NCBI GenBank assembly: GCA_964349485.1 | Contig: CAYGGE010000002.1 | Location: forward strand, 5,737 to 69,736 | Reading direction: 5' to 3' | From: an uncultured Candidatus Saccharibacteria bacterium | Lineage (GTDB): Bacteria; Patescibacteriota; UBA1384; CAYGGE01 | Length of the DNA stretch: 64,000 nt | Part shown: piece after piece, positions 7,466-59,145 of the stretch | How the letters are laid out: every line of letters begins with the position of its first letter | Position numbering within the stretch: the stretch's first letter is position 1 | Translations under genes and position numbers: made by a program | The notes under the pieces: generated by a model | The model's database searches: none | The model's input: only the letters and a program-made list of their open reading frames with translations | Told to the model about the DNA's origin: nothing

Positions 7466-7888
7466 ATGTTTATTGGTGAGTATACAAACAAGATTGACGA
7501 CAAAGGACGCTTGGCAGTCCCAGTTAAATTTCGCAGTGAACTCGCCAGTGGCGCAGTCATCACTCGAGGCTTAGACGGCTGTCTTTTTGTATACACTTTG
7601 AGCGAATGGCGTAAATTAACTGACAGTTTAACAAACCTATCATTGACTGCCGCCAATGCACGAGCCTTAAACCGACACATGTTAGCTGGAGCAATGGAGG
7701 TAACGCTCGATAAACAGGGTCGGGTTATCCTTCCGGGTAGTCTTCGTAAATCAGCTGGCATCGCAACCCAAGTAGTCGTTGCAGGTGTCATGAACCGTCT
7801 CGAGATCTGGGATGAGACGAAATGGCGAGAGTACCTAGAGAAAACAGAAGCCGAAAGTACACAAATCGCTGAACAAATTGTATTCTAG
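7466..7888 (+). CDS. mraZ: Transcriptional regulator MraZ
   Basis: MFIGEYTNKIDDKGRLAVP... The MraZ fold is duplicated. It is the first gene of the dcw cluster. Confidence 0.9.
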   Translation: MFIGEYTNKIDDKGRLAVPVKFRSELASGAVITRGLDGCLFVYTLSEWRKLTDSLTNLSLTAANARALNRHMLAGAMEVTLDKQGRVILPGSLRKSAGIATQVVVAGVMNRLEIWDETKWREYLEKTEAESTQIAEQIVF

Positions 7889-7966
7889 TTGTCCGTGGAA
7901 GTGGGGTTACTGGGGGTGAGGAGAGCTCCAGTAACCCGTCTTCTCCGGATAAAGGGAGAGAGTCTG

Positions 7967-8815: not shown

Positions 8816-8865
8816 TTGTCTGGTTGTCTAGTTATAGATGGAACTAGACGATGAGACTACTAGTG
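8812..8865 (+). repeat. Copy of the CTAG-containing intergenic motif (CTAGTTGTCTGGTTGTCTAGTT ... GGAACTAGACGATGAGACTACTAG)
   Basis: Read directly from the sequence. It overlaps the rsmH stop codon. Confidence 0.4.
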
Positions 8866-8887
8866 AACGCCCCAAAGGAGAGATAAC

Positions 8888-9292
8888 ATGCTTATGACCA
8901 ATGGAACGATTATCACACCCGGTACCAGACGAAGAACCATTAATCGTCAGGTTAGTCTGGGACCGATATCGATGCGTATAGTGACGATTGTAATAATTGC
9001 CGCATCGGCGATCATTACCATCGCACAGACCACAAAGACGGCCACGGCTAGCTACTTGTTACGCAGTAAGAACAGTGAGCTGGCTGATGTTCGAGAAAAT
9101 GTGAAACGTCTTGAAACAGAAGAAGTTCGCCTGCGAGCCCTTAACCTCAATAATCTGGTAACTCAAGGCGGCGAACCAACGGTTGCACCTTCACCGACCG
9201 AAAAATTGAGCCCATCAGATAAGATCAACCAGCTACCATCGAGCGCCAATCAAAATATTAGTCAGTTGCCACAATCCTCAGTACTCCCCTAA
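8888..9292 (+). CDS. ftsL: FtsL-like cell division protein (single TM plus coiled coil)
   Basis: Its position between rsmH and ftsI. A TM segment IVTIVIIAASAIITIA followed by a heptad-like region. Good RBS. Confidence 0.5.
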   Translation: MLMTNGTIITPGTRRRTINRQVSLGPISMRIVTIVIIAASAIITIAQTTKTATASYLLRSKNSELADVRENVKRLETEEVRLRALNLNNLVTQGGEPTVAPSPTEKLSPSDKINQLPSSANQNISQLPQSSVLP

Positions 9293-9306
9293 AAGAAGGC
9301 AACATT

Positions 9307-11031
9307 ATGAAACGTACGACAAGTGGACTCTCTGGTGCTCGCCTGGTTGTCTTGCAGGTAGCGACGGTCGTAATCACGTTCATCGTGATCGGCCGTCTTT
9401 TTGATCTATCGATAATCCGACATGCCAATGCTTTAATTACGGCAAAAAATCAATACGGGATCACCCAGACACTGCCTGCGACTAGAGGAATCATCGGTCT
9501 GCGCGACTTAAATGGGGGCAAGGACTATCCGGTCGCGATGAACGTTATCTCTTATCAGGTAGTGGCTGACCCGTTTCTGATTAAGGATCCACTGAAGGTC
9601 GCAGCTGTATTAGAGCCGGTGATCGGCATCTCGGTTAGTGATCTTCTGCCCAAACTATCTGATAAAAAGAAACGTTTCGTCATACTCAAAAAAAAGCTGG
9701 TAAAAGAAGACTCGAAAAAAGTTGATGACTTGAATCTACGAGGTATTAGTCTACAGCCAGTTGAGTCTCGACTATACCCAGAACTAACCTTAGCGGCTCA
9801 CACAATTGGTTTTGTCGATGCCAGTGGTGTAGGACGCTATGGGATTGAGAGTTTTTTTAACGAAGATCTGACAGGTTATGATGGCGAATTGGTCGGGGAG
9901 AAAGATGCCAAACGACGCATTATCAGTGAGGGTAAGTCAGCTAAGCCACGTGACGGTACAGTTATTACCTTGACTATCGATCGGAGTCTTCAGTTTATAG
10001 TTGAAAATCAATTACGCGAATCGCTTAAAAAATATGAAGCGGAGGGTGGTTCGGTGGTGATCATGGATGTTAAAACTGGCGCCATACTCGCACTGGCAAA
10101 CGAGCCGGGGTACGATCTGAACACGTTTAACGAGGTTCCTGCTGACCAACAAGAGCGCTTTATCAACCAAGCAGTCAGTGGAACATGGGAGCCGGGCTCA
10201 ATTTTCAAGACATTTACCCTGGCCGCCGCAATTGATCTCGGTCTGATTCAGCCTGACACCAAGGCTGATCTAGGTTGTAGCGCTAAAGTTGATGGCTTTG
10301 AGATACGTAACTCTCAAGACAAGTGTTATCCAACGCCAGACGTTACTCAAATCTTATCTGATTCGATTAACTTGGGAACGATATGGGCGGCCGATAAAAT
10401 AGGTAACCAGGACTTTGGTAAGTACATTTCAGACTTTGGCTTCGGCAGTAAGACGGGCATTGAACTACAGCCTGAGTCGACTGGTAAGGTAAGCGATAGT
10501 AACAAGTGGAAAAATGTTAATCGGGCGACCATCTCATTCGGCCAAGGCTTATCGGCTTCACCACTGCAAATAGTCGCCGCATATGCCTCAATAGGCAACG
10601 GTGGAAAGCTAATGCATCCTTATCTTGTCGCGAAGCGGGTAGACAGTAATGGCAAGGTCGTCGAGACAAAACCTCGCGAAGTTCGACAAGTTATTAAACC
10701 TGAAACAGCCGCCATGATGACCACCATGCTTGAGAAAGTGGTCACCGAGGGTCATGGCAAACGGGCTGCAGTTCGTGGTTATCGAATCGGTGGTAAAACG
10801 GGGACGGCTCAAGTAGTGGGAAAAGATGGCACTTACGAAGAAGATGCCCACATTGGCTCATTTGCTGGGATTTTCCCTGCTAATGAACCGCGCTTCGCGA
10901 TGATCGTAAAGCTTGATCGACCGAAGGCTGTCGAGTTTGCCGAGAGTTCCGCCGCACCAACCTTCAGTGAGATCGCCAAGTGGTTATTGCATTATGCCAA
11001 GGTGCCACCGACTGAAGTTGTATCACCATAA
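9307..11031 (+). CDS. ftsI: Penicillin-binding protein transpeptidase FtsI (PBP2/3 class)
   Basis: SIFK (SxxK), SDS and KTGTA motifs. N-terminal TM. Confidence 0.85.
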   Translation: MKRTTSGLSGARLVVLQVATVVITFIVIGRLFDLSIIRHANALITAKNQYGITQTLPATRGIIGLRDLNGGKDYPVAMNVISYQVVADPFLIKDPLKVAAVLEPVIGISVSDLLPKLSDKKKRFVILKKKLVKEDSKKVDDLNLRGISLQPVESRLYPELTLAAHTIGFVDASGVGRYGIESFFNEDLTGYDGELVGEKDAKRRIISEGKSAKPRDGTVITLTIDRSLQFIVENQLRESLKKYEAEGGSVVIMDVKTGAILALANEPGYDLNTFNEVPADQQERFINQAVSGTWEPGSIFKTFTLAAAIDLGLIQPDTKADLGCSAKVDGFEIRNSQDKCYPTPDVTQILSDSINLGTIWAADKIGNQDFGKYISDFGFGSKTGIELQPESTGKVSDSNKWKNVNRATISFGQGLSASPLQIVAAYASIGNGGKLMHPYLVAKRVDSNGKVVETKPREVRQVIKPETAAMMTTMLEKVVTEGHGKRAAVRGYRIGGKTGTAQVVGKDGTYEEDAHIGSFAGIFPANEPRFAMIVKLDRPKAVEFAESSAAPTFSEIAKWLLHYAKVPPTEVVSP

Positions 11032-11096
11032 TCAGAGCCAAACATATAACGCGCCAAGACTTTACTGACCCACTAAACTAACCTATACTAAACCCT

Positions 11097-12125
11097 ATGG
11101 AAGCAATCTTACTTGATACCAATGCCCTAACGCGCATCTTCGGTCTGACGGTTTTGTCATTTGTAACGTCCATGCTGATCACGCCGGCGTTTACTACCTT
11201 TCTATATAAAAACCGCTTAGGCAAGAAAATCCGCCAAACGGATTTTAATGAAAAAGCGGCGCCAATCTTCTATAAACTGCATAAGCACAAAACCAATACA
11301 CCGACGATGGGTGGATTGTTGATCTGGGGAGTCGCAGCTGTACTGACGATTATCTTTAACCTGTCGCGTCAGGCGACTTGGCTTCCTCTATTTGTCTTAG
11401 TGATGAGTGGGGTGATCGGTGCGATTGACGACCTCTACAATATTAACGGAATCGGACCAAATAATGGTGGACTTCGATTTCGACACAAATTACTGATCTA
11501 TCTGGTCATTGCGGTGATCGGTGCTTTATACTTTGCCTTCAAATTAGAATGGATATATCGCGGGATCCATATTCCTGGAGTAGGCGATATTGCTCTTGGC
11601 TATTGGTACGTCCCACTCTTTATCACGGTCTTAATCGGTACCAGTTTTGCGGTCAACCAAACAGATGGACTCGATGGCTTAGCCGGCGGATTACTGGTTA
11701 TGGCATTTATGGCTATGGGTGGTATTGCTTTCTTCCAGGGACAGTTTGGTCTGTCTGCTTTCGCCGGCACACTAGTCGGAGCGATCCTGGCGTTTCTCTG
11801 GTTCAATGTCCATCCGGCGCGCTTTTTTATGGGCGATACGGGTTCAATGGCTTTAGGCATGACCCTAGCCGTCATCGCCTTCCTGACGAACACCGTCTTC
11901 ATCTTACCAATCATCGGTTTCGTCTTTGTTATTGAGGCATTATCGACCATCATCCAGATCTTCTCTAAGAAATTCTTGAAGAAAAAAGTCTTTCTTTCCG
12001 CACCAATACATCACCATTTAGAAGCGATTGGCTGGACTGAGACACGAATAGTGGAACGGGCCTGGATTATCGGGGCAGTTCTTGCAGTTTTTGGTCTAGT
12101 CTTGGCCCTAGTGGGTCGAGGCTAG
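11097..12125 (+). CDS. mraY: Phospho-N-acetylmuramoyl-pentapeptide transferase MraY
   Basis: Polytopic membrane protein with DDxxN and NQTDGLDGLAGG motifs of GT family 4. dcw context. Confidence 0.85.
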   Translation: MEAILLDTNALTRIFGLTVLSFVTSMLITPAFTTFLYKNRLGKKIRQTDFNEKAAPIFYKLHKHKTNTPTMGGLLIWGVAAVLTIIFNLSRQATWLPLFVLVMSGVIGAIDDLYNINGIGPNNGGLRFRHKLLIYLVIAVIGALYFAFKLEWIYRGIHIPGVGDIALGYWYVPLFITVLIGTSFAVNQTDGLDGLAGGLLVMAFMAMGGIAFFQGQFGLSAFAGTLVGAILAFLWFNVHPARFFMGDTGSMALGMTLAVIAFLTNTVFILPIIGFVFVIEALSTIIQIFSKKFLKKKVFLSAPIHHHLEAIGWTETRIVERAWIIGAVLAVFGLVLALVGRG

Positions 12126-12184
12126 TCTCTCATTAATTTATCTTTTAGGACAATGATTGGTAGTCAATAGTAAGAATATGCTTA

Positions 12185-12213
12185 TTGACAAGTAGCTTGC
12201 AATAGTGTATTAT
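12185..12213 (+). promoter_or_regulatory. Sigma70 promoter TTGACA-N17-TATTAT with an extended -10 TG
   Basis: Read directly from the sequence. Confidence 0.55.
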
Positions 12214-12236
12214 GGATACAAGAGCAATTGAAGATC

Positions 12237-12266
12237 CCGTTCGCGACCAAGCGACGGGTTTTTTGT
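12237..12266 (+). terminator. Hairpin CCCGTTCGC...GCGACGGG plus TTTTTTGTT about 25 nt after the promoter (attenuator or terminator)
   Basis: Read directly from the sequence. Confidence 0.45.
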
Positions 12267-12379
12267 TACGTAACCTGACCGCAATGGACCTTAACAACTC
12301 GTAACCAGTAATAGCATTTATATTCAATGCCATATCTCAACTGTGGCACTGTTATTCAATCAGCAACTAAGGAGATATC

Positions 12380-12556
12380 ATGAGTAAATTAACTACTGAA
12401 CCAGTGATCGATACCTGTGAGACCTGTCAAAATTGGGGAGCCAATCAGTCTAAGAAACATGACGACAAATCTCACCCAGTGGTCGTCATAGATGAAAATA
12501 AGGAGCCAAGCGATGAGCAAGTTGTTCCAGTATATATCGAGAAAGCTTCGGTTTAA
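12380..12556 (+). CDS. Small CxxC protein (58 aa), not in the ORF track
   Basis: Strong RBS TAAGGAGATATC-ATG. MSKLTTEPVIDTCETCQNWG... A terminator follows. Confidence 0.5.
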   Translation: MSKLTTEPVIDTCETCQNWGANQSKKHDDKSHPVVVIDENKEPSDEQVVPVYIEKASV

Positions 12557-12606
12557 AAATCTGCATCTTACTGTCATCGAGGACCGAATGCGACTTACTT
12601 AAGGCA

Positions 12607-12634
12607 AAAAGACCCATTGCGGGTCTTTTTGTTT
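12607..12634 (+). terminator. Intrinsic terminator AAGACCC-ATTGC-GGGTCTTTTTGTTT
   Basis: Read directly from the sequence. Confidence 0.6.
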
Positions 12635-12660
12635 ACCTGTAATCAAGGTATAGTACGACT

Positions 12661-13446
12661 ATGATCCAATCCAAATTATTGCTTCAGTTTCCTGAGCTTG
12701 TACATGGTTATTCCGACCGATTAGATGGCGATATGGGAGCAAAGCGATTAGCTGGTGAAACCTATGGTGCAAACGAACAAGCGAAGTGGCTGGCTAATCG
12801 ACAGCGCATCTTTGATCGGCTGGGTATTCCAACGAGTCAAGTGATATTAGCCAGGCAGACCCATAGTGCCACCGTGGAGTCGCTCAATCTAACACATATG
12901 GGTAAGGCACATGATAATCTAGCCACTTTTGCCTCGGCCGATAGCTTCATCCTGACCGATCCCGATATCTTTGCCACTGTTTTTACTGCCGATTGCCTAC
13001 CTATCTTTTGTTACGAGCCGAAAAAACGTATCGTCGCGGCAATGCATGCCGGGTGGCGGGGGATTGCCTCGGGGATAATCAAGACATCTATTATGCAGAT
13101 CAGATCATCGGGTGGCATGATAGAAGACTTACGTGTCTGGATTGGGCCCCATATCAAGGTCTGTCACTACGATGCCGATCCAACAGTCGACAGTTTTGTC
13201 GAAAAACAGAAGGCATTTCAAAATGCGCCCGGGATTCTTATCGAGAAGGGTAATAAGAAAATGATTGATCTAACTGCCCTTGCTGTGAGACAATTAACTG
13301 AAGCTAGTGTATTTGATCAACATCTTGAGATTGGCGATTGCACTGTTTGCGAAAGAGAAAAATATTACTCCTATCATGCGGTCCACGGTAAGAACATTGG
13401 TCGGATGATGGGGGTTATTGGCGTGAGGAACTCCGATGGATCTTGA
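12661..13446 (+). CDS. pgeF: YfiH/PgeF family (DUF152) purine nucleoside phosphorylase/peptidoglycan editing factor
   Basis: QTHSATV, TADCLPIF, HAGWRG and CHYD motifs. Confidence 0.75.
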   Translation: MIQSKLLLQFPELVHGYSDRLDGDMGAKRLAGETYGANEQAKWLANRQRIFDRLGIPTSQVILARQTHSATVESLNLTHMGKAHDNLATFASADSFILTDPDIFATVFTADCLPIFCYEPKKRIVAAMHAGWRGIASGIIKTSIMQIRSSGGMIEDLRVWIGPHIKVCHYDADPTVDSFVEKQKAFQNAPGILIEKGNKKMIDLTALAVRQLTEASVFDQHLEIGDCTVCEREKYYSYHAVHGKNIGRMMGVIGVRNSDGS

Positions 13447-14809
13447 AGGGAAAAAAGTTGCAGTGATCGGTTACGGTGTGAACAATGCCGAATTGCCACA
13501 ATATTTGAAAAATCAAGGCGCTATCGTCACGATCTGCGACGAAAATGAACTATTAGCTACCGATGACCCAGAACTGTCGTATCAATTGGGTAGTGATTAT
13601 CTAAACAATCTCGAGCGGTTTGAGATGATTTTTCGGACTCCTGGCCTTTCGTACTACACTAAAGAACTGCAAGTCGCAAAGCAGGCAGGATCAACACTTT
13701 CCAGCCAAACAGATCTCTTTATCCGGCATTTTCCGGGAAAAGTTATCGGCGTGACAGGAACCAAGGGTAAAGGGACAACGGCCAGTCTAATTTACGCTAT
13801 TTTGCTCGAGGCAAAACAGCAAGGTGAACTTGATGGATCGATCTATCTTGCTGGCAATATTGGCACCTCCCCTCTTCAATTTCTTGATGCGGCCGGAGCC
13901 CAGGATTGGGCAGTGCTTGAGCTATCTAGTTTCCAGCTCCAAGGACTCGAAATCAGTCCACAGATAGCCGTGATACTTGACGTCACTGTCGATCATCTTG
14001 ACTATCATCGTGACGAAGCCGAGTATCTATCCGCCAAGAAGAATATCGTCCGGTATCAAAAACCTGAAGATGCTGTGGTACTCAATATCGACTCATTGAC
14101 CAGCATACTATTTGCTGAGGAGACACCGGCTGTGACTTACTTTTTTTCGCGAAGAAAAACGGTTGATCAAGGGACTTTTGTTAACATGCAGTCAGGTCAA
14201 ATTGTACTCCGACTTCCCGAACGTGAGGATTCAACAATTTGCGAGACTAAGGACGTACAACTAGTCGGGGAGTACAATCTTAGCAATATCACTGCGGCAG
14301 TCACTGCCGGTGCACTTGCTGGGGCGAGTAACAAGAGTGTTCGTACGGCAATTACCTCGTTTCATGGGCTACCACACCGTTTGGAGCTCATCGCCACAAA
14401 ATCGGGGATTCGTTATTACGATGATTCATTCGCAACCACACCTGATGCGGCAATCGGTGCGATTGCCGCGTTCTCCGAGCCAATTACCCTGATTGCCGGG
14501 GGATCGTGGAAAGGTGTTGACTATAGCGAGCTAATAGAGACGATTAACACTAGTACAGTTACGACCGTAATATGTCTAGGGCCAGAAGGTCAGCGAATCA
14601 AGAAAATGCTTGATGAGCTGGGTTCTACTATACAGGCTGTCACCGTTGCAGGCACAATGGCGGACATTGTTTCTGTAGCCCGTAGTGTTACAAGCCCGAG
14701 AGGAATTGTATTGCTCTCACCGGCTGCTGCCAGTTTCGACATGTTTAGAAACGCCACTGATCGGGGAGATCAGTTTAAGCAAGCCGTTTTGGCTTTACCA
14801 AACGATTAA
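13436..14809 (+). CDS. murD: UDP-N-acetylmuramoylalanine--D-glutamate ligase MurD
   Basis: KVAVIGYGVNNA N-terminal fold. GVTGTKGKGTT P-loop. dcw order. Confidence 0.85.
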   Translation: MDLEGKKVAVIGYGVNNAELPQYLKNQGAIVTICDENELLATDDPELSYQLGSDYLNNLERFEMIFRTPGLSYYTKELQVAKQAGSTLSSQTDLFIRHFPGKVIGVTGTKGKGTTASLIYAILLEAKQQGELDGSIYLAGNIGTSPLQFLDAAGAQDWAVLELSSFQLQGLEISPQIAVILDVTVDHLDYHRDEAEYLSAKKNIVRYQKPEDAVVLNIDSLTSILFAEETPAVTYFFSRRKTVDQGTFVNMQSGQIVLRLPEREDSTICETKDVQLVGEYNLSNITAAVTAGALAGASNKSVRTAITSFHGLPHRLELIATKSGIRYYDDSFATTPDAAIGAIAAFSEPITLIAGGSWKGVDYSELIETINTSTVTTVICLGPEGQRIKKMLDELGSTIQAVTVAGTMADIVSVARSVTSPRGIVLLSPAAASFDMFRNATDRGDQFKQAVLALPND

Positions 14810-14828
14810 TATGTAGAGAGGTGAGCGC

Positions 14829-15944
14829 GTGCCCAAAGACCACAATAAAGGAACGGTCGATTATACCCTACTCCTCATTATCTTCACTTTAGTGGTGATC
14901 GGTTTATTGGCAGTCTCCTCAGCGTCAGTCGTGGTCTCTTTCGATCGATTTGGTCAAAACTTTTATTATTTACGTACCCAGCTTTTTGCAACCCTGTTGG
15001 GCCTGATCGCCATGGCGATCACTACGGCTATCGACTATCGCTATTGGCGTAAACTAGCTTATCCACTAATGCTTGTGACTATCGCCTTGCTTGTCCTCGT
15101 CCTGATCCCTGGTATCGGACGTGAACTAGGAGGGGCTAGGGCCTGGGTCTACATTGGTCCGATTAACTTTCAGCCCTCTGAAATTGTAAAATTGACCTTC
15201 CTTCTCTATTTTGCGGCTTGGCTAGAGCGTCAGGGTGAAGGAGTGCGAAGACTACATACTGGTTTTATCCCGTTTCTAACCATGCTTGGAGTGATTGCCC
15301 TCCTAGTCATGATGCAACCTGATCTAGGCACCCTGACGATCATTGTAGCCATCGCTGTCGCGATGTTTTTTACTGCCGGCGCGAGCTGGGTTCAGATGGG
15401 GGCAATCAGTGCTGGCGCGGTCGGCATTTTCATGCTATTGATCAAAGTTGCACCGTACCGACTCCAGCGTATAGCGACGTTTCTAGAGCCGACAAAGGAT
15501 TGTCTGGGGTCGGGCTATCAGATCTGCCAATCGTTGCTTGGCATCGGTAGCGGTGGGTGGTTCGGTCTAGGTTTCGGCCAGTCGAAGCAGAAGTTTCTCT
15601 ACTTACCGCAAGCTCACACTGACTCAATCTTTGTAATTCTAGTTGAGGAATTGGGTTTTCTGCGAACGACTTTGATTCTCGTCTTGTTTGGACTTGTCGG
15701 TTATCGTGGCTATAAAATTGCCGAGCATGCCCCGGATATGTTCGGTCGTTTGGTAGCGACGGGCATTACTAGTTGGCTAATCTTCCAGACGTTTGTCAAT
15801 ATTGGTGCCGCATTGAGTATCGTGCCATTAACCGGGATTACTCTGCCGTTCATATCCTACGGCGGCTCATCGATGATCCTAACTTTAGCGGCGAGTGGTA
15901 TATTATTAAACATTTCAAAGCAGATTAAGAGTGAGAACGCATGA
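14829..15944 (+). CDS. ftsW: SEDS-family peptidoglycan glycosyltransferase FtsW
   Basis: GTG start with RBS. Ten-TM SEDS protein. QPSEIVKL motif. Confidence 0.85.
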   Translation: MPKDHNKGTVDYTLLLIIFTLVVIGLLAVSSASVVVSFDRFGQNFYYLRTQLFATLLGLIAMAITTAIDYRYWRKLAYPLMLVTIALLVLVLIPGIGRELGGARAWVYIGPINFQPSEIVKLTFLLYFAAWLERQGEGVRRLHTGFIPFLTMLGVIALLVMMQPDLGTLTIIVAIAVAMFFTAGASWVQMGAISAGAVGIFMLLIKVAPYRLQRIATFLEPTKDCLGSGYQICQSLLGIGSGGWFGLGFGQSKQKFLYLPQAHTDSIFVILVEELGFLRTTLILVLFGLVGYRGYKIAEHAPDMFGRLVATGITSWLIFQTFVNIGAALSIVPLTGITLPFISYGGSSMILTLAASGILLNISKQIKSENA

Positions 15945-17056
15945 CAAAAAGACGTATAGTGATTGCTGGCGGTGGGACGGGCGGTCATATTACTCCAGCT
16001 CTTGCAGTTGCAGCCGAATTAAGTAATGAACAGACCGATATTAGTTTTATCGGTCAGGCTTCTGGTATGGAATCTGAGTTAGTTGCCAAAGCAGGCTACC
16101 CCTTCCACGGAATTAAGGCAGGTAAACTACGTCGATATTTTGATCTTGCCAATGTCACCGATCTTTTCAAGACGATTAGCGGTTTCTTTGCCTCATATAC
16201 GAAACTTAAAGAGCTTCGACCCAAGGTTATTTTCTCCAAGGGTGGTTACGTGGCTGTCCCTGTTGCCTATGCCGCCGCAATGCTCCATATTCCGGTCGTT
16301 ACTCACGAATCTGATGCGGTGATCGGTTTAGCTAATCGGTTGATCGCTAAAAAAGCCAGACTGATTTGTACTGGGTTTCCTAGTGTTAACTATCCAGAAT
16401 CACTTCGTAAAAAAATCGAATATACCGGTAATCCAGTCAGGGAAATTTTCGAGCGAAAAATACCCGCGAAAATTGCTCTCTGTGAGCATTACAAAATCGA
16501 CCCAAAATCACCTATAGTTTTAGTGATTGCCGGTAGCCAAGGATCTAGAGCAATAAACCAACTGATTTTCGATAGCCTAGAGAAGCTGCTGCCAACTATC
16601 TCAATTATACATATTACGGGCGTAAATCATCTGAGTGAAGCGAAGTCAGTACGTGCACTACTTCCAGAGGATCTGCGTAAGCGATACTATGTGCATGATT
16701 TCGTAGGTGACGAGCTTCCAGAGTACATGGCATTAGCTGATCTTGTCGTCAGTCGTGCTAGCGCGGCGGTAATTAGCGAACTAGCGATTATGAACAAGCC
16801 TACGATTCTTATCCCCCTACCAACTGCCGCCTCTGATCACCAACAGGTCAATGCCAAAATCTTAGCCAAGGCGAAAGCCGCACTCTTAGTTCCAGAGTAT
16901 GATTTGACGGCTTCGATCTTGCAAGAGAAGCTGATTGCTCTCATCACAGACAATACACAGCTTGAACAGCTCTCAAGGACAATTGGGGCGTTTGCGACTC
17001 CCGATGCATCAGTCAAAATTGCACGTCTGATCGAGCATGTGGCTAAAGAAAGTTAA
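15941..17056 (+). CDS. murG: UDP-GlcNAc--undecaprenyl-PP-MurNAc-pentapeptide GlcNAc transferase MurG
   Basis: IAGGGTGGHITPALAVAAEL. Confidence 0.9.
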   Translation: MTKRRIVIAGGGTGGHITPALAVAAELSNEQTDISFIGQASGMESELVAKAGYPFHGIKAGKLRRYFDLANVTDLFKTISGFFASYTKLKELRPKVIFSKGGYVAVPVAYAAAMLHIPVVTHESDAVIGLANRLIAKKARLICTGFPSVNYPESLRKKIEYTGNPVREIFERKIPAKIALCEHYKIDPKSPIVLVIAGSQGSRAINQLIFDSLEKLLPTISIIHITGVNHLSEAKSVRALLPEDLRKRYYVHDFVGDELPEYMALADLVVSRASAAVISELAIMNKPTILIPLPTAASDHQQVNAKILAKAKAALLVPEYDLTASILQEKLIALITDNTQLEQLSRTIGAFATPDASVKIARLIEHVAKES

Positions 17057-17069
17057 CGAAGAAGGTGAT

Positions 17070-18464
17070 ATGAACCAGTCAAAACCACAGATTCATTTTA
17101 TTGGCATCAAGGGCGTTGGTATGTCGGCTTTGGCCTTGGTAGCTAATGGACTCGGCCACAATGTGAGTGGCTCGGATGTGAATGAACAGTTCATTACTGA
17201 TCAATCGTTGCAAGATGCTGGTATCTTTGTCGCTTCAGGATTTAATGCTGACCATATACCGACCGACACTGGACTTGTGGTGGTCGGAGGATCGTTTGAT
17301 CAAAACAATCCTGAAGTCATCGCGGCGAAGCAGAGAAACCTGCAAATCTTGACCTATTCCGAGTTTCTGGGTCAACTTTCAGATGATCAAAAAACTATCG
17401 CGATCGCCGGCACACATGGTAAAACGACGACTACCGCCCTATTAGCATATATTTTTGAACAATCTGGAGAGAAGCCAAGCTATGTGATTGGTACTGGAAG
17501 CGTGGCAGGCCTCAAGGCACCGGGTGCAGCGGGAGAAGGAGAATATTTTATTACTGAGGCAGACGATTATAAACGCTCAGTTGCCGATCCAACCCCTAAG
17601 TTTCTTGATCTTAAACCCTACGCGGCAATCGTTACCTCTATTGAACATGATCACCCCGATCTTTTCCCTACTTTGCAGTCCTGTACCGATGCTTTCGTAA
17701 AATTTGCGACCAAGCTTAGGCCCGATGGTTTTCTTGTGGTTAATGCCGACGATGCGGGAGTAACTAGCTTGCGGGCGATAATTACTAATAAAAAAGTCAT
17801 TAGTTACGGTCATGACAATGGTGCCGACTATCGGATTACCCTATCGCAAACTGACGCCGAGAGCCCAGTGCGTTTTTCGCTAGTTACGGCGACTACGACC
17901 TATGGACCATTTGAGTTAGGCCTTCGTGGTAGACACAATTTGTCTAATGCCGCCGCCGCCGTGACGATGGCTTTAGAGCTCGGCTTGTCGCCTGCGAAAA
18001 TCCAAGCTATCTTACCAACATTCGAGTCTGTTGAACGTCGCTACGACTATGTTGGCAAGCGGGGAGAGATTGATATTTACGACGATTATGCCCATCATCC
18101 GACCGCTGTTGCCGTAACCTTAGAGACCTTACGTATTCAGTATCGTCGCCGGCCTTTATGGTGTGTCTTCCAGCCACATACTTACTCTCGTACAAAAGCG
18201 TTACTTGAAGAATTTGGTGCGGCTTTTGGTGCGGCTAGTATGGTCATCATTACCGATATCTATGCTTCAGCGAGAGAAACTGAAGTCACGGTCACAGCTA
18301 ACGAACTAGTACGGGCTATCGCCGCAAATCGCGACTCAGTACAATACGTCAGTCACGATACACTAGAAAAGTATCTAAAGGAGAATTTACCCTCTAATGC
18401 AGTATTGGTGACCATGGGTGCCGGGGATATATATAAAATAGGACGAGCACTCCTCGATAGCTAA
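17070..18464 (+). CDS. murC: UDP-N-acetylmuramate--L-alanine ligase MurC
   Basis: IHFIGIKGVGMSALA... GTHGKTTTT. The start is taken at the ATG with RBS GAAGGTG. The ORF-track start lies 11 codons upstream. Confidence 0.85.
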   Translation: MNQSKPQIHFIGIKGVGMSALALVANGLGHNVSGSDVNEQFITDQSLQDAGIFVASGFNADHIPTDTGLVVVGGSFDQNNPEVIAAKQRNLQILTYSEFLGQLSDDQKTIAIAGTHGKTTTTALLAYIFEQSGEKPSYVIGTGSVAGLKAPGAAGEGEYFITEADDYKRSVADPTPKFLDLKPYAAIVTSIEHDHPDLFPTLQSCTDAFVKFATKLRPDGFLVVNADDAGVTSLRAIITNKKVISYGHDNGADYRITLSQTDAESPVRFSLVTATTTYGPFELGLRGRHNLSNAAAAVTMALELGLSPAKIQAILPTFESVERRYDYVGKRGEIDIYDDYAHHPTAVAVTLETLRIQYRRRPLWCVFQPHTYSRTKALLEEFGAAFGAASMVIITDIYASARETEVTVTANELVRAIAANRDSVQYVSHDTLEKYLKENLPSNAVLVTMGAGDIYKIGRALLDS

Positions 18465-18467
18465 TTT

Positions 18468-19532
18468 ATGATAGACAATTCATTACTCGAACAATTGAGG
18501 TTAAAAATCCCAGGGGTGGCTCAAAATGAGCCATTATCGCGCCACAGTACTATCCGTGCTGGCGGTTTAGCAGCCGCATTTCTGGTCACTAAGACAATCG
18601 ATGAGCTGGTCAGTGCCGTTACGGTCGTAAGGGAACTAGGCATACTCTTTCGAATTATCGGCGGTGGCAGCAATACTCTCTTTTCTGATAAAGGTTTTGA
18701 TGGCCTCGTAATTAAAAACCTGGCCAATGGCATCGATATCGCTGGTGCCAGAGAGGAACTTGATCCGATACCTTGGCAGCCAGTGGCCGAGATCCGTCAC
18801 GAAGCGGCTAATCCTAGCAAATATGTTTCATTTCTCGATCTAAATTATGATGAGCGACCTGGCGATACTCTTGTTACGGTTGAGTCTGGGATCAATCTGA
18901 CGGCCCTAATAATTCGATCCCTCGATGCTGGTCTACTTGGTCTTGAGTGGTTTGGTGGTATACCCGGGACGCTCGGTGGGGCAATATACAACAATATTCA
19001 CGGTGGAACTCACTTTATTGGCGAACGAGTCAACAGTGTTGAGGCATTAACTGGAGATGGATCAAGGCAGAGTTATGCACATGAAGAGCTGGCTTTTAGT
19101 TATGACAAGAGTCGTTTTCACGATACGGCGGAGGTAATCCTGCGTGTTGAGCTATCTTTGACTAAAGGCACAAAACTGGAGATTGATCGAGCCGACGATA
19201 CTTTCCGCCAATGGGTTAGACGCAAAGGTGAAATGCAACCAAAGCTCGGTTCGCTAGGCTCAACCTTTCAAAATATTAGCCAAGCTGATCGACAAAAGAT
19301 TGGCGCACCGACGACGTCTGCCGGATGGATTATCGAGCAGGTAGGGTTAAAGGGACATCGAATTGGTGACGCTCAGATTGCACCTGAACATGCCAATTTT
19401 ATTATTAATCACGGTGGCGCGACCTCGAGCGATATCTATGCGCTAATCCGTCTAGCCCAAAAAGAGGTGAAGAAGAAGTTTGGTCTCGATCTTCAACTTG
19501 AGGTGTTTCTGGTGGGAGAATTTGATTACTGA
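18468..19532 (+). CDS. murB: UDP-N-acetylenolpyruvoylglucosamine reductase MurB
   Basis: FAD-binding GGGSNTLF. C-terminal NHGGATSSD ... LEVFLVGEF. Confidence 0.85.
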   Translation: MIDNSLLEQLRLKIPGVAQNEPLSRHSTIRAGGLAAAFLVTKTIDELVSAVTVVRELGILFRIIGGGSNTLFSDKGFDGLVIKNLANGIDIAGAREELDPIPWQPVAEIRHEAANPSKYVSFLDLNYDERPGDTLVTVESGINLTALIIRSLDAGLLGLEWFGGIPGTLGGAIYNNIHGGTHFIGERVNSVEALTGDGSRQSYAHEELAFSYDKSRFHDTAEVILRVELSLTKGTKLEIDRADDTFRQWVRRKGEMQPKLGSLGSTFQNISQADRQKIGAPTTSAGWIIEQVGLKGHRIGDAQIAPEHANFIINHGGATSSDIYALIRLAQKEVKKKFGLDLQLEVFLVGEFDY

Positions 19533-20506
19533 TGGATCTAGTACTTTTACGTCGAAAACTGAAAGGGCGTCTAAAGGAAAATGTAGTCATTCGGGATTAT
19601 GTTGTTTCTTCAGTTGGTGGAGTTGTCGACTACCTTGTAATCTGTGAGACTGTAGAGTCAGTCATAGAAACTGTCACAATTGCTAAAGAAGCGAACACTC
19701 CCATGGTGGTAATTGGTCAAGGAAGTAATGTTCTTTTCTCAGACGTTGGTTATGCTGGATTAGTGATCGTAAACCGGACGAGTCGTTTGTCGGTCATCCC
19801 AGAAAAAAGTCAGGTGATCGCTGATAGCGGCGTTGTGCTAACCCGACTGATGATGGAGTCGGCGGCCCATGACTTAACTGGACTTGAGTTCTTCTCGTCA
19901 CTTCGAGGCACTATCGGTGGTGCAACGGTCAATAATCGACAAGCTAATGGAGTGGCGATCGGTAAGTTTATTAAAGGCGTGACTGTCTTGATGCCTGATG
20001 GTGCAGTTGTTCATCACCCTGTATCATGGCTCGATTTTGAGCCGTTTATCAGTCGACTGATGCGGGTACGAATGGCCGATCAGACAACATTGATCCCCAC
20101 AATTTTAACCGTTACGTTACAACTCTCGCGCAACAAAAAAGAAGAAATTGTCCGAAAGATTCAACATTTTAGCACACTAAATAAGAAATTCTGGCCACTT
20201 GAAGAGCCATCGATTGGGCCTATCTTCCGTGATCCGGCCCTTGATCAACCGGCTGAGGCCTTTATGCAAGACATCGCCCTTAAAAAAATGAAAATCGGCC
20301 GGGCTAAAATATATCCGGCCAATCACAACTTCATCTTGACACACGATCGAGGTTTAGGCGCGGGGAAAACGGTTGATATTGCCCAGCTCGTACTGGCCAT
20401 GAAAAAGAATGTCCTAGATAATTATGGCGTCTTTCTTGAGGAAGCTTTTGAGTACATAGGTAATTGGGAAAACCTAGAGACCGATGCTGACCATACTATT
20501 ATATAA
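19532..20506 (+). CDS. Second MurB-like paralog (FAD-binding PCMH fold) in tandem
   Basis: VVIGQGSNVLFSD ... NHNFILTHDRG ... LEEAFEY. It sits immediately after murB with an overlapping stop/start. Confidence 0.6.
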   Translation: MDLVLLRRKLKGRLKENVVIRDYVVSSVGGVVDYLVICETVESVIETVTIAKEANTPMVVIGQGSNVLFSDVGYAGLVIVNRTSRLSVIPEKSQVIADSGVVLTRLMMESAAHDLTGLEFFSSLRGTIGGATVNNRQANGVAIGKFIKGVTVLMPDGAVVHHPVSWLDFEPFISRLMRVRMADQTTLIPTILTVTLQLSRNKKEEIVRKIQHFSTLNKKFWPLEEPSIGPIFRDPALDQPAEAFMQDIALKKMKIGRAKIYPANHNFILTHDRGLGAGKTVDIAQLVLAMKKNVLDNYGVFLEEAFEYIGNWENLETDADHTII

Positions 20507-20509
20507 CAC

Positions 20510-21550
20510 TTACCCAAAACTGAGTACAGGGTCACGATCTAACTCCTCGATATTCTTAACATAATCGTTGTGTCTTGTCTGATAATATGCCGCTACTGCG
20601 ATCATCGCGGCATTATCGGTGCACAGTTTTTTTAGATTGGGATAGTGGACAGTCACCCCAGATGGCTTAAGGGCTTTTCTTATGGCTTGTCGAAGAGCAG
20701 TGTTGGCGATGACTCCCCCGCCAAGTAAGACTTGTTTGATCTTGTACTGTTTTATAGCTGGAATTAGCTTAATGAGAATTGCATGGATAGCGACACGTTG
20801 GAAGCTAGCGGCAATATCAACGATTTCTTGTTTGTTTAGTTCGTGCCCGTCGGCCGTCATTTTCTTAATCATATAGAGGACAGAAGTCTTCAGGCCAGAG
20901 AAACTAAAGTTGAGGTCGTTAGAATGTTTCATGGGAATTGGGAAGTCGTACGCATTAGCATCACCCTCTTTTGCTAGACTAGCCAATACCGGTCCACCTG
21001 GATAACCAAGGCCGAGCATTCTGGCAACCTTATCGAAAGCTTCACCCATTGCATCGTCAAGTGTCGCACCGACAATCTCGAAGTCGAAGTCGTCTTTGAT
21101 GAGTACTAATTCAGTGTGGCTACCAGAGAGGAGCAGGGCGAGACTAGGGTGGGTGATGGCGTCGATTGAAGATTTACCTGCTTTTGTTTTGGCAAAGTTA
21201 GCATAGATATGACCAATCATATGATTGACCGCGACTAAGGGTTTGTTAGAGAACGTAGCAAGTTCTTTCGCTTTGCGAACGCCGACTTCTAGGGCGATAG
21301 CCAGACCTGGGCCATAGGTCACCGCAAAGACATCGATCTGTTCGAGTGTAAGGCCTGAGCGTTTAAGTGCCAACTTCATGACTGGGTCGAGTTGCTCGTT
21401 GTGGGCCCGTTGAGCGATACTCGGTACGACACCGCCCCACTGTTTATGGAGTTCGATCTGCGAAGATATCGCGTTTGTCAAAATGACATCGTCACGGCTG
21501 ATCGCGACTGAAGTCTCATCACAACTGGTATCGATGGCTAAAATATGCAT
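20510..21550 (-). CDS. tsaD: tRNA N6-adenosine threonylcarbamoyltransferase TsaD (Kae1/YgjD family)
   Basis: MHILAIDTSCDETSVAI and NHMIGHIYA motifs. Confidence 0.9.
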   Translation of the reverse strand: MHILAIDTSCDETSVAISRDDVILTNAISSQIELHKQWGGVVPSIAQRAHNEQLDPVMKLALKRSGLTLEQIDVFAVTYGPGLAIALEVGVRKAKELATFSNKPLVAVNHMIGHIYANFAKTKAGKSSIDAITHPSLALLLSGSHTELVLIKDDFDFEIVGATLDDAMGEAFDKVARMLGLGYPGGPVLASLAKEGDANAYDFPIPMKHSNDLNFSFSGLKTSVLYMIKKMTADGHELNKQEIVDIAASFQRVAIHAILIKLIPAIKQYKIKQVLLGGGVIANTALRQAIRKALKPSGVTVHYPNLKKLCTDNAAMIAVAAYYQTRHNDYVKNIEELDRDPVLSFG

Positions 21551-21584
21551 AACAAGTAATAATTAAAAACGAATAATGAATAAT

Positions 21585-22682
21585 TTATAGTATAGGTTGG
21601 TCTGAGTAGGTGATCGTTCGTTGATGTTCATTATCGCCGTACTCAAGCTTGACCCAAATTATCTTGGCCTCAGCTGTATAGTTACTCAAAACGTCGGCAA
21701 TTTTGTCGGCCCATTCGATCGCTAATACAGCGTTTGAATCTATCATCTTTGCGAGACCTAAATCAACAAACTCTTTACTGTCAAATAATCGCCAGGTGTC
21801 GATATGTATAAACTGATTAGGAGTATCACCGTAATTGAAATTGTACTCCCTAGATAGAGTGAAGGTCGGCGAAGTGATTGGTTTTGTTACGCCTAGGTCT
21901 TGACCAATACCTTTAGAGAGCTGAGTCTTGCCGGCGCCCATCTCGCCGACTAAGGCAAAGATAAGGGCTCGCTCATTGAGATATTGGCGGTATTGTCCAA
22001 CCAATTGTGCACCGATCTCCTGGGTCTCGGCGGCGCTTTCAGTAGTGACAATGGTTGCCTCTGACAATTTAATATCTCCTTGGCGAAGGATAGTTGGCTG
22101 GTCAAGCGTCGTATCGATTACCGTCGACGGTTCATTTTTTTGGAGAGCTCCGGCGTCGATAATTAGATCGATCAATGACTTTTGATGGGCGGAAATGTTT
22201 TCCAAGATGTCGGAGATTGCATACGGTCGTTTTTTGTATGAGGCGTTGGCTGAACTTGCCGTTATCGGCTTACCATATGCGGCTAAGATCTTACGGATTA
22301 CGCTCGAGTCAGGAATTCGAATTCCTAAAGTAGCGCGTTCAGATTCAACACCTTTGGCCACCTTACCTTTGGATTTCGAGATGATGGTGATTGGCCCCGG
22401 GAGAAAGTTCGTATACAGCCGTTGTGCCTCACTATTAAGTTCGACATACTGACTAGCCATCGCCTGGTCGTTTACGGCGATTGATAGCGGTTTACCCTGC
22501 CGGCGAGCTTTATAGCGCAATAATCTATCTACGGCGGCTTGATTAGTCGCGTCGGCGCCTATACCGTAAACCGTCTCAGTCGGGTAGATAACTAAACCAC
22601 CGGCCGCGAGTACACGGCAGGCAGTATCAATAATCTGTTGGGACTGGGTTGTTTTACAATCAAGGGTAATCATAGTCACCAT
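21585..22682 (-). CDS. Fusion protein. N-terminal domain: L-threonylcarbamoyladenylate synthase TsaC/YrdC. C-terminal domain: TsaE (YjeE P-loop).
   Basis: N-terminal PTETVYGIGADA...SANASYK. C-terminal GEMGAGKTQLSKGI...SPTFTLSREY...HIDTWRL. Confidence 0.7.
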   Translation of the reverse strand: MVTMITLDCKTTQSQQIIDTACRVLAAGGLVIYPTETVYGIGADATNQAAVDRLLRYKARRQGKPLSIAVNDQAMASQYVELNSEAQRLYTNFLPGPITIISKSKGKVAKGVESERATLGIRIPDSSVIRKILAAYGKPITASSANASYKKRPYAISDILENISAHQKSLIDLIIDAGALQKNEPSTVIDTTLDQPTILRQGDIKLSEATIVTTESAAETQEIGAQLVGQYRQYLNERALIFALVGEMGAGKTQLSKGIGQDLGVTKPITSPTFTLSREYNFNYGDTPNQFIHIDTWRLFDSKEFVDLGLAKMIDSNAVLAIEWADKIADVLSNYTAEAKIIWVKLEYGDNEHQRTITYSDQPIL

Positions 22683-22759
22683 TTATACTATAAAACGATC
22701 ATTTTTTGAAGTCCCCATGCTCTTCTCACCCTATAAGCAATGACGTATAATGAGTACAT

Positions 22760-23908
22760 ATGAGGTCAATTATATTATCGCTCCTAGAGCGCTATCTTGT
22801 TCGGCTCGCGCAAGTTACTTTGGCGATCGACAAACCGGTGATTATTGGCATTACCGGAAGCGTCGGTAAGACAACCGCCAAAGAAGCCGTATTCCATCTT
22901 CTTGAAACAGCCAAACTACCGGTTCGTAAAACTGGAGGCAACTTAAACTTCGATATTGGTATCGCCATGACAATCCTGGGTTATGATCATAGCCCAGCGA
23001 TCTGGGAATGGCCATGGGCAATATTGATTGTTCATCTCAATTGGTTGTTACAGCTCTCAAGGCTTACCCATTTACCAGAATATTTAGTAGTCGAGATGGG
23101 AATCGATCGACTGGGCGATATGAAACGTCTGACTAAATGGCTTAAACCATCGATTGGGGTGGTCACCTGGATCGGAGAAGGGCACCATCTGGAATACTTG
23201 AAAGATGCCCCAACCATAGCTAGGGAAAAAGGCGAGATGCTGAGGGTCTTACCTAAGAACGGGCTAGCTATCTTGCCAGCTAAAGATCCGAATATTGCAA
23301 TCTTGAAAGCGATGTCTAGTGCTGATACAGAGCTATTTCAGGCGACGGGTGTTGAGTCGATCGAAGAAATACTTGCTATCATTGCCAAGAGACTAGATAT
23401 CCAGGCATCGATTGCTGAAGAGTCAATGCAAACCTTCAAACAACCTAAAGGACGACTTAATATCTTCGTCGGAATAAAGGATACGACTATTCTTGATGAT
23501 TCTTACAACACCAGTCTGCCAGCCATCCGGATGGCTTTGACTAAACTTAGTGAGCTTCAGGCCAAAAGAAAAGTCGCAATTTTGGGTGATATCCTGGAGC
23601 AAGGGGACTATGAAAAGGAACATCATGAAAAGGCGGCTGATCTGGTGCATGAAACTGCCGATCTATTCATTGGTGTGGGTAGGCGCATGCAAAATGTTAA
23701 GCCTGATTATTGGTTCGCTGACCCTGATGAAGCTGCCCTCAAAATCCCCGATCTGCTTGAGGCTGGTGACGGTGTACTAGTTAAGGGTTCGCAAGGTATG
23801 CGGCTGGAAAAAATTAGTTATTCATTAATTGCTGATAAGCGGCAAGCAAAGAGGTTACTCCCCCGTCAGGACAGACGATGGCAACAGATCCCGTTTGGAA
23901 ATCCGTAG
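22760..23908 (+). CDS. Mur ligase family protein, MurF-like (382 aa). It appears to lack the usual N-terminal domain.
   Basis: IIGITGSVGKTTAKEAV P-loop near the N-terminus. C-terminal Mur ligase domain. Confidence 0.55.
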   Translation: MRSIILSLLERYLVRLAQVTLAIDKPVIIGITGSVGKTTAKEAVFHLLETAKLPVRKTGGNLNFDIGIAMTILGYDHSPAIWEWPWAILIVHLNWLLQLSRLTHLPEYLVVEMGIDRLGDMKRLTKWLKPSIGVVTWIGEGHHLEYLKDAPTIAREKGEMLRVLPKNGLAILPAKDPNIAILKAMSSADTELFQATGVESIEEILAIIAKRLDIQASIAEESMQTFKQPKGRLNIFVGIKDTTILDDSYNTSLPAIRMALTKLSELQAKRKVAILGDILEQGDYEKEHHEKAADLVHETADLFIGVGRRMQNVKPDYWFADPDEAALKIPDLLEAGDGVLVKGSQGMRLEKISYSLIADKRQAKRLLPRQDRRWQQIPFGNP

Positions 23909-23975
23909 GGACAGTATATGTCTCATGCCTCATGCAAGAGCTATATACTGTCTGATATAACTCAATCTATATCGT

Positions 23976-24812
23976 GTGGAGGGCACTATCTTTGTGCAGA
24001 CCAAACAGCGGCGTTTCGCTAGAAATAGACATGTCTATCGACAAGACTATACCTATTTCGACCGGACCAAAGAGATAAAACAGGGAGTATTTATCCCGAC
24101 TTGGGTTTTACCACTCTTCTTTGCCTTGGCCACACTTGCTTTCCTGATTTGGTTTTTTACAAGTGCTCCATGGCTTGCGGTGAAACATATTACAATTGAA
24201 GGTCAAGCAACGTCTGAGGTGATCAAGGAAATCAACAAACTTAAAGGTCAAAACGTCTTGTGGTTGTCGATTACCCGACCTGAAACGGCGATCATTCAGC
24301 ATCAACCTAGTATTAAAGAAATCCAAATTCTAAGAGGCATACCGGACACGCTTCGGGTGAAGTTGATCGAACGGAAACCAGCCCTCTTATGGCAAGTTAG
24401 TAACCAACTCTATACGATCGACGCTACGGGCTTCGTCTACAAACAGGAACTGTTGGCTTCGCGCGACGGCACATACATCTACCCCGACACAAATCTGGCG
24501 GTAGTCACCGATACTAAAGGCATTCCTGTCGAGATCGGCCAGACGGCTGTTCGTTCAGATTTCATTAGTTTTATCCAGTTGCTCCAAGAGCGGTTACCTG
24601 CGGATTACGGCCTCAAATTTCTAAGAGCCGAGATTAATGAAACGACTTTCAATGTTTCTATTCTTACCGACGCCGGTTGGAAAGTGATGTTTGATACGAC
24701 CAGGAAGATTGAACCTCAGCTTAAGACGTTAAAAGATGTGCTGGACGTGAAAAGGGCAGAGATAAAAGAGTATCTCGACCTCAGGGTACGGGGCTGGGTC
24801 TACTATAAGTAA
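23976..24812 (+). CDS. ftsQ: FtsQ/DivIB-like cell division protein (TM plus POTRA)
   Basis: Single TM. POTRA-like ...IKEIQILRGIPDTLRVKLIERKPALLWQ...YTIDATGFV. Confidence 0.6.
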   Translation: MEGTIFVQTKQRRFARNRHVYRQDYTYFDRTKEIKQGVFIPTWVLPLFFALATLAFLIWFFTSAPWLAVKHITIEGQATSEVIKEINKLKGQNVLWLSITRPETAIIQHQPSIKEIQILRGIPDTLRVKLIERKPALLWQVSNQLYTIDATGFVYKQELLASRDGTYIYPDTNLAVVTDTKGIPVEIGQTAVRSDFISFIQLLQERLPADYGLKFLRAEINETTFNVSILTDAGWKVMFDTTRKIEPQLKTLKDVLDVKRAEIKEYLDLRVRGWVYYK

Positions 24813-39033: not shown

Positions 39034-39109
39034 TGGTCAGGGTGGCGGGGCTCGAACCCGCGACCTCCGGACCCCCAGCCCGACGCGCTACCAACTGCGC
39101 TACACCCTG
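39034..39109 (-). tRNA. tRNA-Pro (anticodon GGG), CCA encoded
   Basis: Reverse complement CAGGGTG...CACCCTG-A-CCA. Anticodon loop CTGGGGG. Confidence 0.8.
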
Positions 39110-58447: not shown

Positions 58448-58458
58448 TCTAACTGTCT

Positions 58459-59139: not shown

Positions 59140-59145
59140 GGAAAT

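Follow-up and report, generated by a model that had tools for sequence, protein, structure and literature searches.

A conserved TsaC-TsaE fusion encoded with tsaD in Patescibacteria and on contigs of DPANN archaea

Threonylcarbamoyladenosine (t6A) is a universal tRNA modification that is essential in many organisms. Its biosynthesis passes through threonylcarbamoyl-AMP (TC-AMP), a very unstable intermediate (PMC6009658), and two questions about the bacterial pathway remain open, namely how TC-AMP travels from the synthase TsaC to the transferase TsaD and what the true role of the TsaE ATPase is (PMC6009658, PMC6614819). TsaE sits at the entrance of the TsaD active site, where it excludes tRNA, and Missoury et al. 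proposed that it prepares TsaD for a transient contact with TsaC during which TC-AMP is passed on, with ATP hydrolysis ejecting TsaE (PMC6009658). Luthra et al. count the part that TsaC2 plays in the reset among the open questions (PMC6614819), and Oberto stated that no interaction of YrdC with the complex had been reported. Here, we analyze a stretch of 64,000 nucleotides (hereafter, the window) from an uncultured Candidatus Saccharibacteria bacterium (assembly GCA_964349485.1, contig CAYGGE010000002.1, positions 5,737 to 69,736), in which a TsaC domain and a TsaE domain are encoded by one open reading frame (ORF) located next to tsaD. A preliminary description of this locus had set the fusion against model bacteria in which both proteins are separate, a statement that holds.

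The fusion ORF (Table 1) is uninterrupted, without stop codon or frameshift between the two domains, and both are recognized by profiles scoring above their curated cut-offs. In Pfam, PF01300 (Sua5_yciO_yrdC) matches with 166.8 bits (cut-off 25.1) and PF02367 (TsaE) with 99 bits (cut-off 26.6), while the NCBIfam equivalog models TIGR00057 (TsaC) and TIGR00150 (TsaE) reach 190.1 bits (cut-off 123.2) and 79.8 bits (cut-off 60.1), respectively. This domain scan confirms what the preliminary description had read by motif, and every motif that it had singled out (PTETVYGIG, SANASYK, GEMGAGKT, SPTF, and HIDTWRL) is present in the ORF. The ATG at 22673, which is the start used in public gene calls and yields a protein of 362 amino acids, is likely the true start. 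As had also been noted, the fusion gene lies directly upstream of tsaD on the same strand; both genes are on the minus strand. tsaD itself is a separate ORF in another reading frame, 34 nt 3' of the fusion, and its product is assigned by TIGR03723 (379.2 bits, cut-off 296.1) and PF00814 (284 bits). No terminator-like site was found in the 34-nt gap, and the two genes are presumably co-transcribed. The promoter of the pair is presumed to lie in the divergent intergenic region, where a scan returned a sigma-70-like match on the plus strand only and no convincing promoter on the minus strand.

A single fused ORF might result from a frameshift introduced by assembly or sequencing, or from the loss of a stop codon, that merged tsaC and tsaE in this contig only. 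The one further copy of this exact sequence is on ENA contig k141_4205, which shares window positions 1-39420 and reaches ~36 kb further left. This contig is identical to the window across the 21-kb overlap compared and, because of this identity, is not an independent check. The decisive evidence comes from conservation across species. When the best 120 relatives were taken from a search against a collection of 5.8 billion proteins, PF01300 and PF02367 were both present in all of them (347-393 amino acids, 51-100% identity to the query, five data sources). In a scan of species-representative genomes, where the best 80 loci were considered and counts are lower bounds, the complete fusion was found in at least 51 of the 80 listed loci. 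With one more locus obtained separately, this gives 52 distinct related loci (53 copies with the window), and both domains reside within one ORF in all 52. Besides, an exhaustive search with a 136-residue query spanning the TsaC-TsaE junction (E ≤ 1e-10) retrieved 147 representatives of clusters at 50% identity, of which ~140 match as one stretch in proteins of ~350-370 amino acids, and the junction region shows one indel only among 32 aligned sequences. The hidden frameshift or stop that the preliminary description had considered is excluded by this near-fixed junction length and by the survey of related genomes, and the probability of an artefact is negligible. The fusion is thus confirmed as genuine, neither an assembly artefact nor a one-off.

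Linkage to tsaD is conserved nearly as well as the fusion. In 49 of the 52 related loci, tsaD lies 3' of the fusion in the same orientation; both genes overlap or are at most 60 nt apart in 34 loci and stand within 4 kb in 15 others, with heterogeneous ORFs in between (HIT family, HAD-like, orphans). Two of the three loci without tsaD after the fusion end at a contig edge, and the gene neighbourhoods of related loci are otherwise unrelated. A HIT-family gene recurs on the opposite strand, beside or between the two genes, in four loci (L024:13525-13929, L051:8942-9307, L055:11056-11460, and L099:12921-13373) that span several unrelated lineages, one of them archaeal. The only fusion without tsaD within 10 kb that is not at a contig end (L042:10004-11080) belongs to a record titled Planctomycetota. 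Judged by eye, its neighbours are FabF-like, GcvT-like, and alanyl-tRNA synthetase genes, which is atypical of the Candidate Phyla Radiation (CPR), and the architecture may extend beyond CPR bacteria and DPANN archaea.

The named hosts are mostly Patescibacteria (CPR), with sources assigned to Saccharibacteria, Woesebacteria, Microgenomates, Amesbacteria, Levybacteria, Dojkabacteria, Kerfeldbacteria, Pacebacteria/Paceibacterota, and the 'Patescibacteria group'. The fusion had been called an uncommon architecture, which is correct relative to studied bacteria; it is widespread in Patescibacteria and also occurs in DPANN archaea. In a neighbour-joining tree, copies from many metagenome-assembled genomes (MAGs) titled 'uncultured Gammaproteobacteria' or 'uncultured Pseudomonadales' (Table 1) interleave with CPR-labelled fusions, suggesting that these titles are probably wrong. 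Neither TsaE nor a TsaC-TsaE fusion was found in the viral collection, where giant-virus contigs (IMG/VR MAGs, L088-L096) encode stand-alone TsaC-like proteins with 28-35% identity to the TsaC half.

Since YciO and the YrdC-like domain of HypF also fall within PF01300, and since the YciO structure 1k7j is also a good fold match to the modelled N-terminal domain, this domain could be YciO-like or another carbamoyl-adenylate paralogue acting outside t6A synthesis. The published criterion to tell a true TC-AMP synthase from YciO is the KRSN tetrad (PMC4615747, PMC10321239), and the tetrad of the fused TsaC is intact (K58, R60, S144, and N146). When the protein is aligned to solved structures, K58-A-R60 and S144-A-N146 fall on the KxR and SxN motifs found in T. 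maritima TsaC2 and in P. abyssi Sua5, whereas the YciO paralogue lacks both. Together with the score of the TsaC equivalog model, the fusion to TsaE, and the linkage to tsaD, these features make an identity outside t6A synthesis highly improbable. Across the 53 species-level copies, the lysine and the asparagine are each kept in 52, the serine in 49, and an arginine is found at position 60 or 61 in all. On sequence grounds, the fused synthase is TsaC-type and not Sua5-type, because its C-terminal domain is TsaE and because Pfam matches only PF01300 and PF02367 on the protein, with no hit for SUA5; the TsaE domain takes the position that SUA5 holds in Sua5.

The TsaE half is equally well preserved. 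It displays the Walker A motif GEMGAGKT, Switch I (S271-P-T-F274), Switch II (H293-x-D-x-W297-R298), and the E323-W324 pair, all of which are invariant or conservatively substituted in 53/53 copies. Residues of Walker A, Switch I (SPTF), and Switch II (HxDxYR) are required for the ATP-driven reset (PMC6614819). One sub-lineage (L007, identical to L003, with P0080 and P0093) combines intact TsaE motifs with a degenerate TsaC tetrad, in which K is changed to R and SAN to TAA-P. In L007 (9989-13034; a contig of 1.57 Mb titled 'Gammaproteobacteria'), a 302-residue orphan ORF without family match separates the fusion from tsaD, with overlapping stop and start codons.

An AlphaFold2 model of the fusion, built on an alignment of 77 sequences, displays two canonical folds with a mean predicted local distance difference test (pLDDT) value of 91.8 and a predicted template modelling (pTM) score of 0.65. 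The N-terminal domain superposes on E. coli YrdC (1hru) with a template modelling (TM) score of 0.84 and a root-mean-square deviation (rmsd) of 2.9, and the best full-length fold matches to the model are Sua5/TsaC2 structures (E 2e-20). The C-terminal domain superposes on H. influenzae YjeE (1htw; TM 0.81, rmsd 2.4) and also matches T. maritima TsaE (6n9a_E) and 6s84_E. The linker is modelled with a lower pLDDT (~76 versus ~92 overall). The spacing from G202, where TsaC ends, to T220, at the first helix of TsaE, is 17 residues in 34 of the 53 copies, with a range of 14-28.

What could be gained from joining these two proteins? It seems reasonably probable that the fusion is a bifunctional t6A enzyme coupling TC-AMP synthesis to TsaE docking on TsaD. 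Starting from two intact domains, their fusion, and their widely conserved linkage to tsaD, we infer co-transcription, both enzymatic activities, and a coupling of TC-AMP hand-over to TsaE docking that would proceed as follows. The TsaC domain is predicted to convert threonine, bicarbonate, and ATP into unstable TC-AMP. The TsaE domain, a predicted ATPase, would dock onto the TsaD platform where the active site of TsaD opens, in competition with tRNA, and its hydrolysis of ATP would reset the platform. With a linker of ~10-17 residues between the domains and the fusion expressed along with tsaD, each docking event of TsaE would bring the source of TC-AMP beside TsaD. TC-AMP would be loaded while tRNA is excluded, ATP hydrolysis would then free the fusion protein, and tRNA would finally bind TsaD and receive the threonylcarbamoyl group. 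TsaC and TsaE being joined in one protein, the hand-over idea of Missoury et al. receives classical Rosetta-stone support. Indeed, a conserved covalent TsaC-TsaE fusion is what their hypothesis would predict, as it would tie the supply of TC-AMP to TsaD that is bound by TsaE and free of tRNA.

Several observations weigh against this coupling, at least in a strict form. Judging by its pTM score, the model does not fix how the two domains are oriented towards each other. In addition, a TsaC-TsaD arrangement of the TobZ type would put TsaC opposite to TsaE on TsaD (Missoury et al., PMC6009658), a position to which the short linker probably cannot span, so that any coupling would rely on proximity rather than on a tunnel of the TobZ type. 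Finally, stand-alone TsaC occurs in a few CPR genomes (L060 and L061), and since the TsaC tetrad is also degenerate in the L007/P0080 and P0093 sub-lineage, coupling is not obligatory. A further candidate for a CPR TsaC without TsaE (L058) was rejected, its fusion being interrupted by a run of N.

The main competing explanation is mechanistically neutral: genome streamlining would have merged adjacent genes, ensuring 1:1 expression with less regulatory sequence, and the domains would work independently, as in systems with TsaC and TsaB/TsaD/TsaE. The variable sequence and lower model confidence of the linker, the pTM score, which suggests no fixed inter-domain interface, and the CPR genomes with stand-alone TsaC are all in line with such a merger, and other t6A fusions (alr::yjeE, yeaZ::rimI::ygjD, and TsaC/HemK) seem to be driven by co-expression. 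However, domain order and linker length (17 residues in 34/53 copies) are kept at 40-70% identity and across the archaeal transfer described below, indicating selection on the fused state, and the strong instability of TC-AMP should make proximity count kinetically. We regard a neutral merger as possible but doubtful.

The bifunctional enzyme proposed here is not confined to bacteria. The fusion and tsaD also occur as a cassette on genuinely archaeal contigs labelled Aenigmarchaeota, Micrarchaeota, and Diapherotrites (Table 1). Three independent Aenigmarchaeota assemblies (L012, L018, and L098) share an identical gene order: aIF2-alpha, PAC2, a eukaryotic/archaeal-type uS2, LemA, a Hel308-type helicase, the fusion, TsaD, archaeal DnaG, Hjc, Orc1/Cdc6, and PolB. 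Archaeal RqcH is encoded on the 241-kb contig of L017, aIF-2/aIF5B in L031 (Micrarchaeota), a diphthamide synthase in L097 (labelled 'archaeon'), and a deoxyhypusine synthase in L099 (Diapherotrites). In L012, L017, L018, and L031, the transferase is of the bacterial TsaD type, scoring 368-381 bits with TIGR03723 and only 164-179 bits with the Kae1 model (cut-off 375), and the gene upstream exceeds the cut-offs for TsaC and TsaE alike. In control DPANN loci, a genuine Kae1 (412-475 bits) precedes a stand-alone TsaC. This direct succession of Kae1 and TsaC was seen in L066, L069, L074, L076, and L078 (~7500-10700 in each), and the pair is the archaeal counterpart of a tight synthase-transferase linkage. 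The archaeal copies of the cassette imply inter-domain transfer of a two-gene t6A module, and since the Aenigmarchaeota group comprises ~30 clusters at 90% identity, the module appears to have been stably inherited there after its transfer.

Whether this cassette works with TsaB is a separate question, which the preliminary description had raised by suggesting a check for tsaB. Among the 53 ORFs of the window, tsaD encodes the only PF00814 protein and Pfam reveals no TsaB; no tsaB was found either in the ~8 kb left of the window on k141_4205. Across the window and 99 loci (1.65 Mb), phmmer searches with E. coli and Vibrio TsaB and a TsaB hidden Markov model built from three sequences matched TsaD or Kae1 only, with ~20 kb (±10 kb) covered per related genome. 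Scanning viral contigs for TsaB, in case they contained contaminating CPR sequences, returned nothing. Two unassigned ORFs were considered as divergent TsaB, the 302-residue ORF of L003/L007 and a 198-residue ORF of L004, and both were rejected: they have no Pfam or NCBIfam match and a helical or membrane-like look. Within these stretches, tsaB is not linked to the fusion-tsaD cassette. Short 'peptidase M22' (YeaZ-like) genes occur in some CPR genomes.

One could go further and propose that the pair is a self-sufficient, TsaB-independent t6A system, in which TsaD would pair with itself as a Qri7-like homodimer, and the resulting TsaD-TsaD interface would replace the TsaB-TsaD interface as the docking site of the TsaE domain. 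The lack of any PF00814 or TsaB-like gene besides TsaD/Kae1 in the stretches searched is consistent with this proposal, as many bacteria have tsaB in a cluster with tsaE and tsaD (PMC6009658; Oberto). Moreover, exactly these two genes, and no other recognizable one, moved into DPANN archaea, which have no native TsaB. Qri7 needs no accessory proteins, and neither TsaB nor TsaE is present in two Mycoplasma species (PMC4615747, PMC6009658). The proposal is weakened by the ~20 kb covered per genome, while tsaB is dispersed in most phyla (Oberto). In addition, every TsaE studied so far contacts TsaB, and the TsaE ATPase needs TsaBD (PMC6009658, PMC6614819); known TsaB-less bacteria have also lost TsaE (PMC4615747), whereas the TsaE motifs are strictly conserved here. 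Because TsaE contacts TsaB in every solved complex and is lost along with it in the known cases, it is more likely that tsaB is present elsewhere in fusion-bearing genomes. A self-sufficient pair is unlikely in our opinion, and we hold equally improbable its wider form, a complete TsaB-independent module that is horizontally mobile between CPR bacteria and DPANN archaea and supplements or replaces KEOPS in the latter. If true, no simpler cellular, non-organellar t6A system would be known, and the module would be a rare example of a bacterial tRNA-modification pathway at work in archaea.

In the window, the tsaCE-tsaD pair is inserted in antisense orientation within a division and cell wall (dcw)-type cluster (7466-24812). 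The cluster reads mraZ, rsmH, a penicillin-binding protein gene, mraY, a Cu-oxidase_4 family gene, murD, ftsW, murG, murC, and two murB copies, followed by tsaD and the fusion gene on the opposite strand, then by a Mur ligase gene and a POTRA/ftsQ-like gene. Of the tandem MurB-like genes (18468-19532 and 19532-20506), the second is more divergent (MurB_C E 1e-9 versus 1e-28 for the first). Further right, k141_4205 ends at ~39420, near a tRNA-Pro gene (39034-39109), and the right 24.6 kb of the window have no counterpart there; accordingly, the window derives from another, or a longer, assembly. This right part includes, at 54131-63418, a 1438-residue ORF, then small ORFs and two ATPase genes of the type II/IV secretion family (T2SSE, best E 1.9e-127), a set that may be part of a type IV pilus-like locus. 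In the left extension of k141_4205, a group I intron splits a bacterial 23S rRNA gene, which also has a LAGLIDADG ORF; a 5S rRNA gene comes next (Table 1). rRNA introns of this kind are a recognized, typical trait of CPR bacteria.

Table 1. Coordinates of the fusion gene, its parts, and the related features (window positions unless a locus is named)
Feature	Position	Strand	Remarks and basis
tsaC-tsaE fusion gene	21585..22682	-	365 amino acids from first ATG; Pfam and NCBIfam
TsaC (YrdC-type) threonylcarbamoyl-AMP synthase domain, residues 24-202	22077..22613	-	Pfam, NCBIfam
Inter-domain linker, residues 203-214	22041..22076	-	variable sequence; from TsaC end (LRQG) towards first TsaE strand
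TsaE (YjeE) P-loop ATPase domain, residues 215-346	21645..22040	-	Pfam, NCBIfam, motifs, fold
Walker A of TsaE domain, G246-E-M-G-A-G-K-T253	21924..21947	-	GxxGxGK[TS] in 53/53 species-level copies
AT-rich 34-nt spacer, fusion stop codon to tsaD start codon	21551..21584	-	sequence
tsaD, bacterial-type tRNA A37 threonylcarbamoyltransferase	20510..21550	-	346 amino acids; TIGR03723, PF00814
Divergent intergenic region between fusion gene and Mur-ligase gene (22760..23908, +)	22683..22759	.	77 nt; sequence
rRNA region, ~7-10 kb left of window start	L085:1-3229		group I intron 473-720; LAGLIDADG homing-endonuclease ORF 993-1463
Archaeal cassettes	L012:10004-12153, L017:9944-12545, L018:10001-12952, L031:9962-12172		
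Archaeal cassettes	L097, L098, L099, each 10001 to ~12170		
Fusion loci of MAGs titled 'uncultured Gammaproteobacteria' or 'uncultured Pseudomonadales'	L015, L019, L022, L025-L030, L034, L036, L040, L041, L051, L052, L056, L057		

In the literature searched, we found no description of a TsaC-TsaE (YrdC-YjeE) fusion; the architecture is unmentioned in the t6A reviews, the 2023 Sua5/TsaC phylogenomic survey, and the fusion catalogues consulted, and no paper on the t6A gene content of CPR was found there. Public sequences of the fusion carry both Pfam domains and are named only 'L-threonylcarbamoyladenylate synthase', and surveys of stand-alone TsaE may wrongly score these CPR genomes as devoid of it. 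As a natural and widely conserved association, the fusion argues that TsaC and TsaE act on TsaD at one moment, and it provides a stable construct, already made by nature, for studying the structure and kinetics of the hand-over. In the same vein, the DPANN cassette with its bacterial-type TsaD indicates that the pathway is able to pass from one domain of life to another as a unit of two genes, and raises the question whether TsaB, or KEOPS in archaea, is dispensable there.

To conclude, the cassette can be placed among the known t6A systems and their relatives. With the canonical system (TsaC/TsaC2 and TsaB-TsaD-TsaE of E. coli and T. maritima; PDB 6N9A and 6S84), it shares the TsaC, TsaE, and TsaD families as well as their catalytic and switch motifs and folds. 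In that system, TsaC and TsaE are separate and model systems have yielded no stable TsaC-TsaBDE complex (PMC6009658), whereas here they are covalently associated in one polypeptide and no tsaB is linked to the genes. In Sua5/TsaC2, the TsaC domain is followed by a C-terminal SUA5 domain, where the fusion carries the P-loop ATPase TsaE; the loop of Sua5 has ~20 residues (PMC10321239), while the linker of the fusion is short and variable. Other fusions of t6A proteins have been reported, namely TsaN (TsaD-TsaC-SUA5-TcdA, Pandoravirus), yeaZ::rimI::ygjD, alr::yjeE, and TsaC/HemK, none of which combines TsaC with TsaE. The archaeal Kae1-Bud32 fusion (e.g. MJ1130), which has been taken as evidence of functional linkage (PMC4615747), likewise ties a core t6A enzyme to an ATPase/kinase regulator of the transfer step; there, the transferase is joined to the regulator, whereas here the TC-AMP synthase is joined to it and the transferase stays separate. 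Finally, TobZ and HypF similarly couple an adenylate-forming step to the transfer machinery in a covalent manner, which protects the labile carbamoyl-adenylate. In both, a YrdC-like synthase is fused to a Kae1-like transferase, with an internal channel between the two sites. Unlike in these enzymes, the synthase described here is fused to an accessory ATPase that binds the opposite face of TsaD, and TsaD itself is encoded by an ORF of its own.

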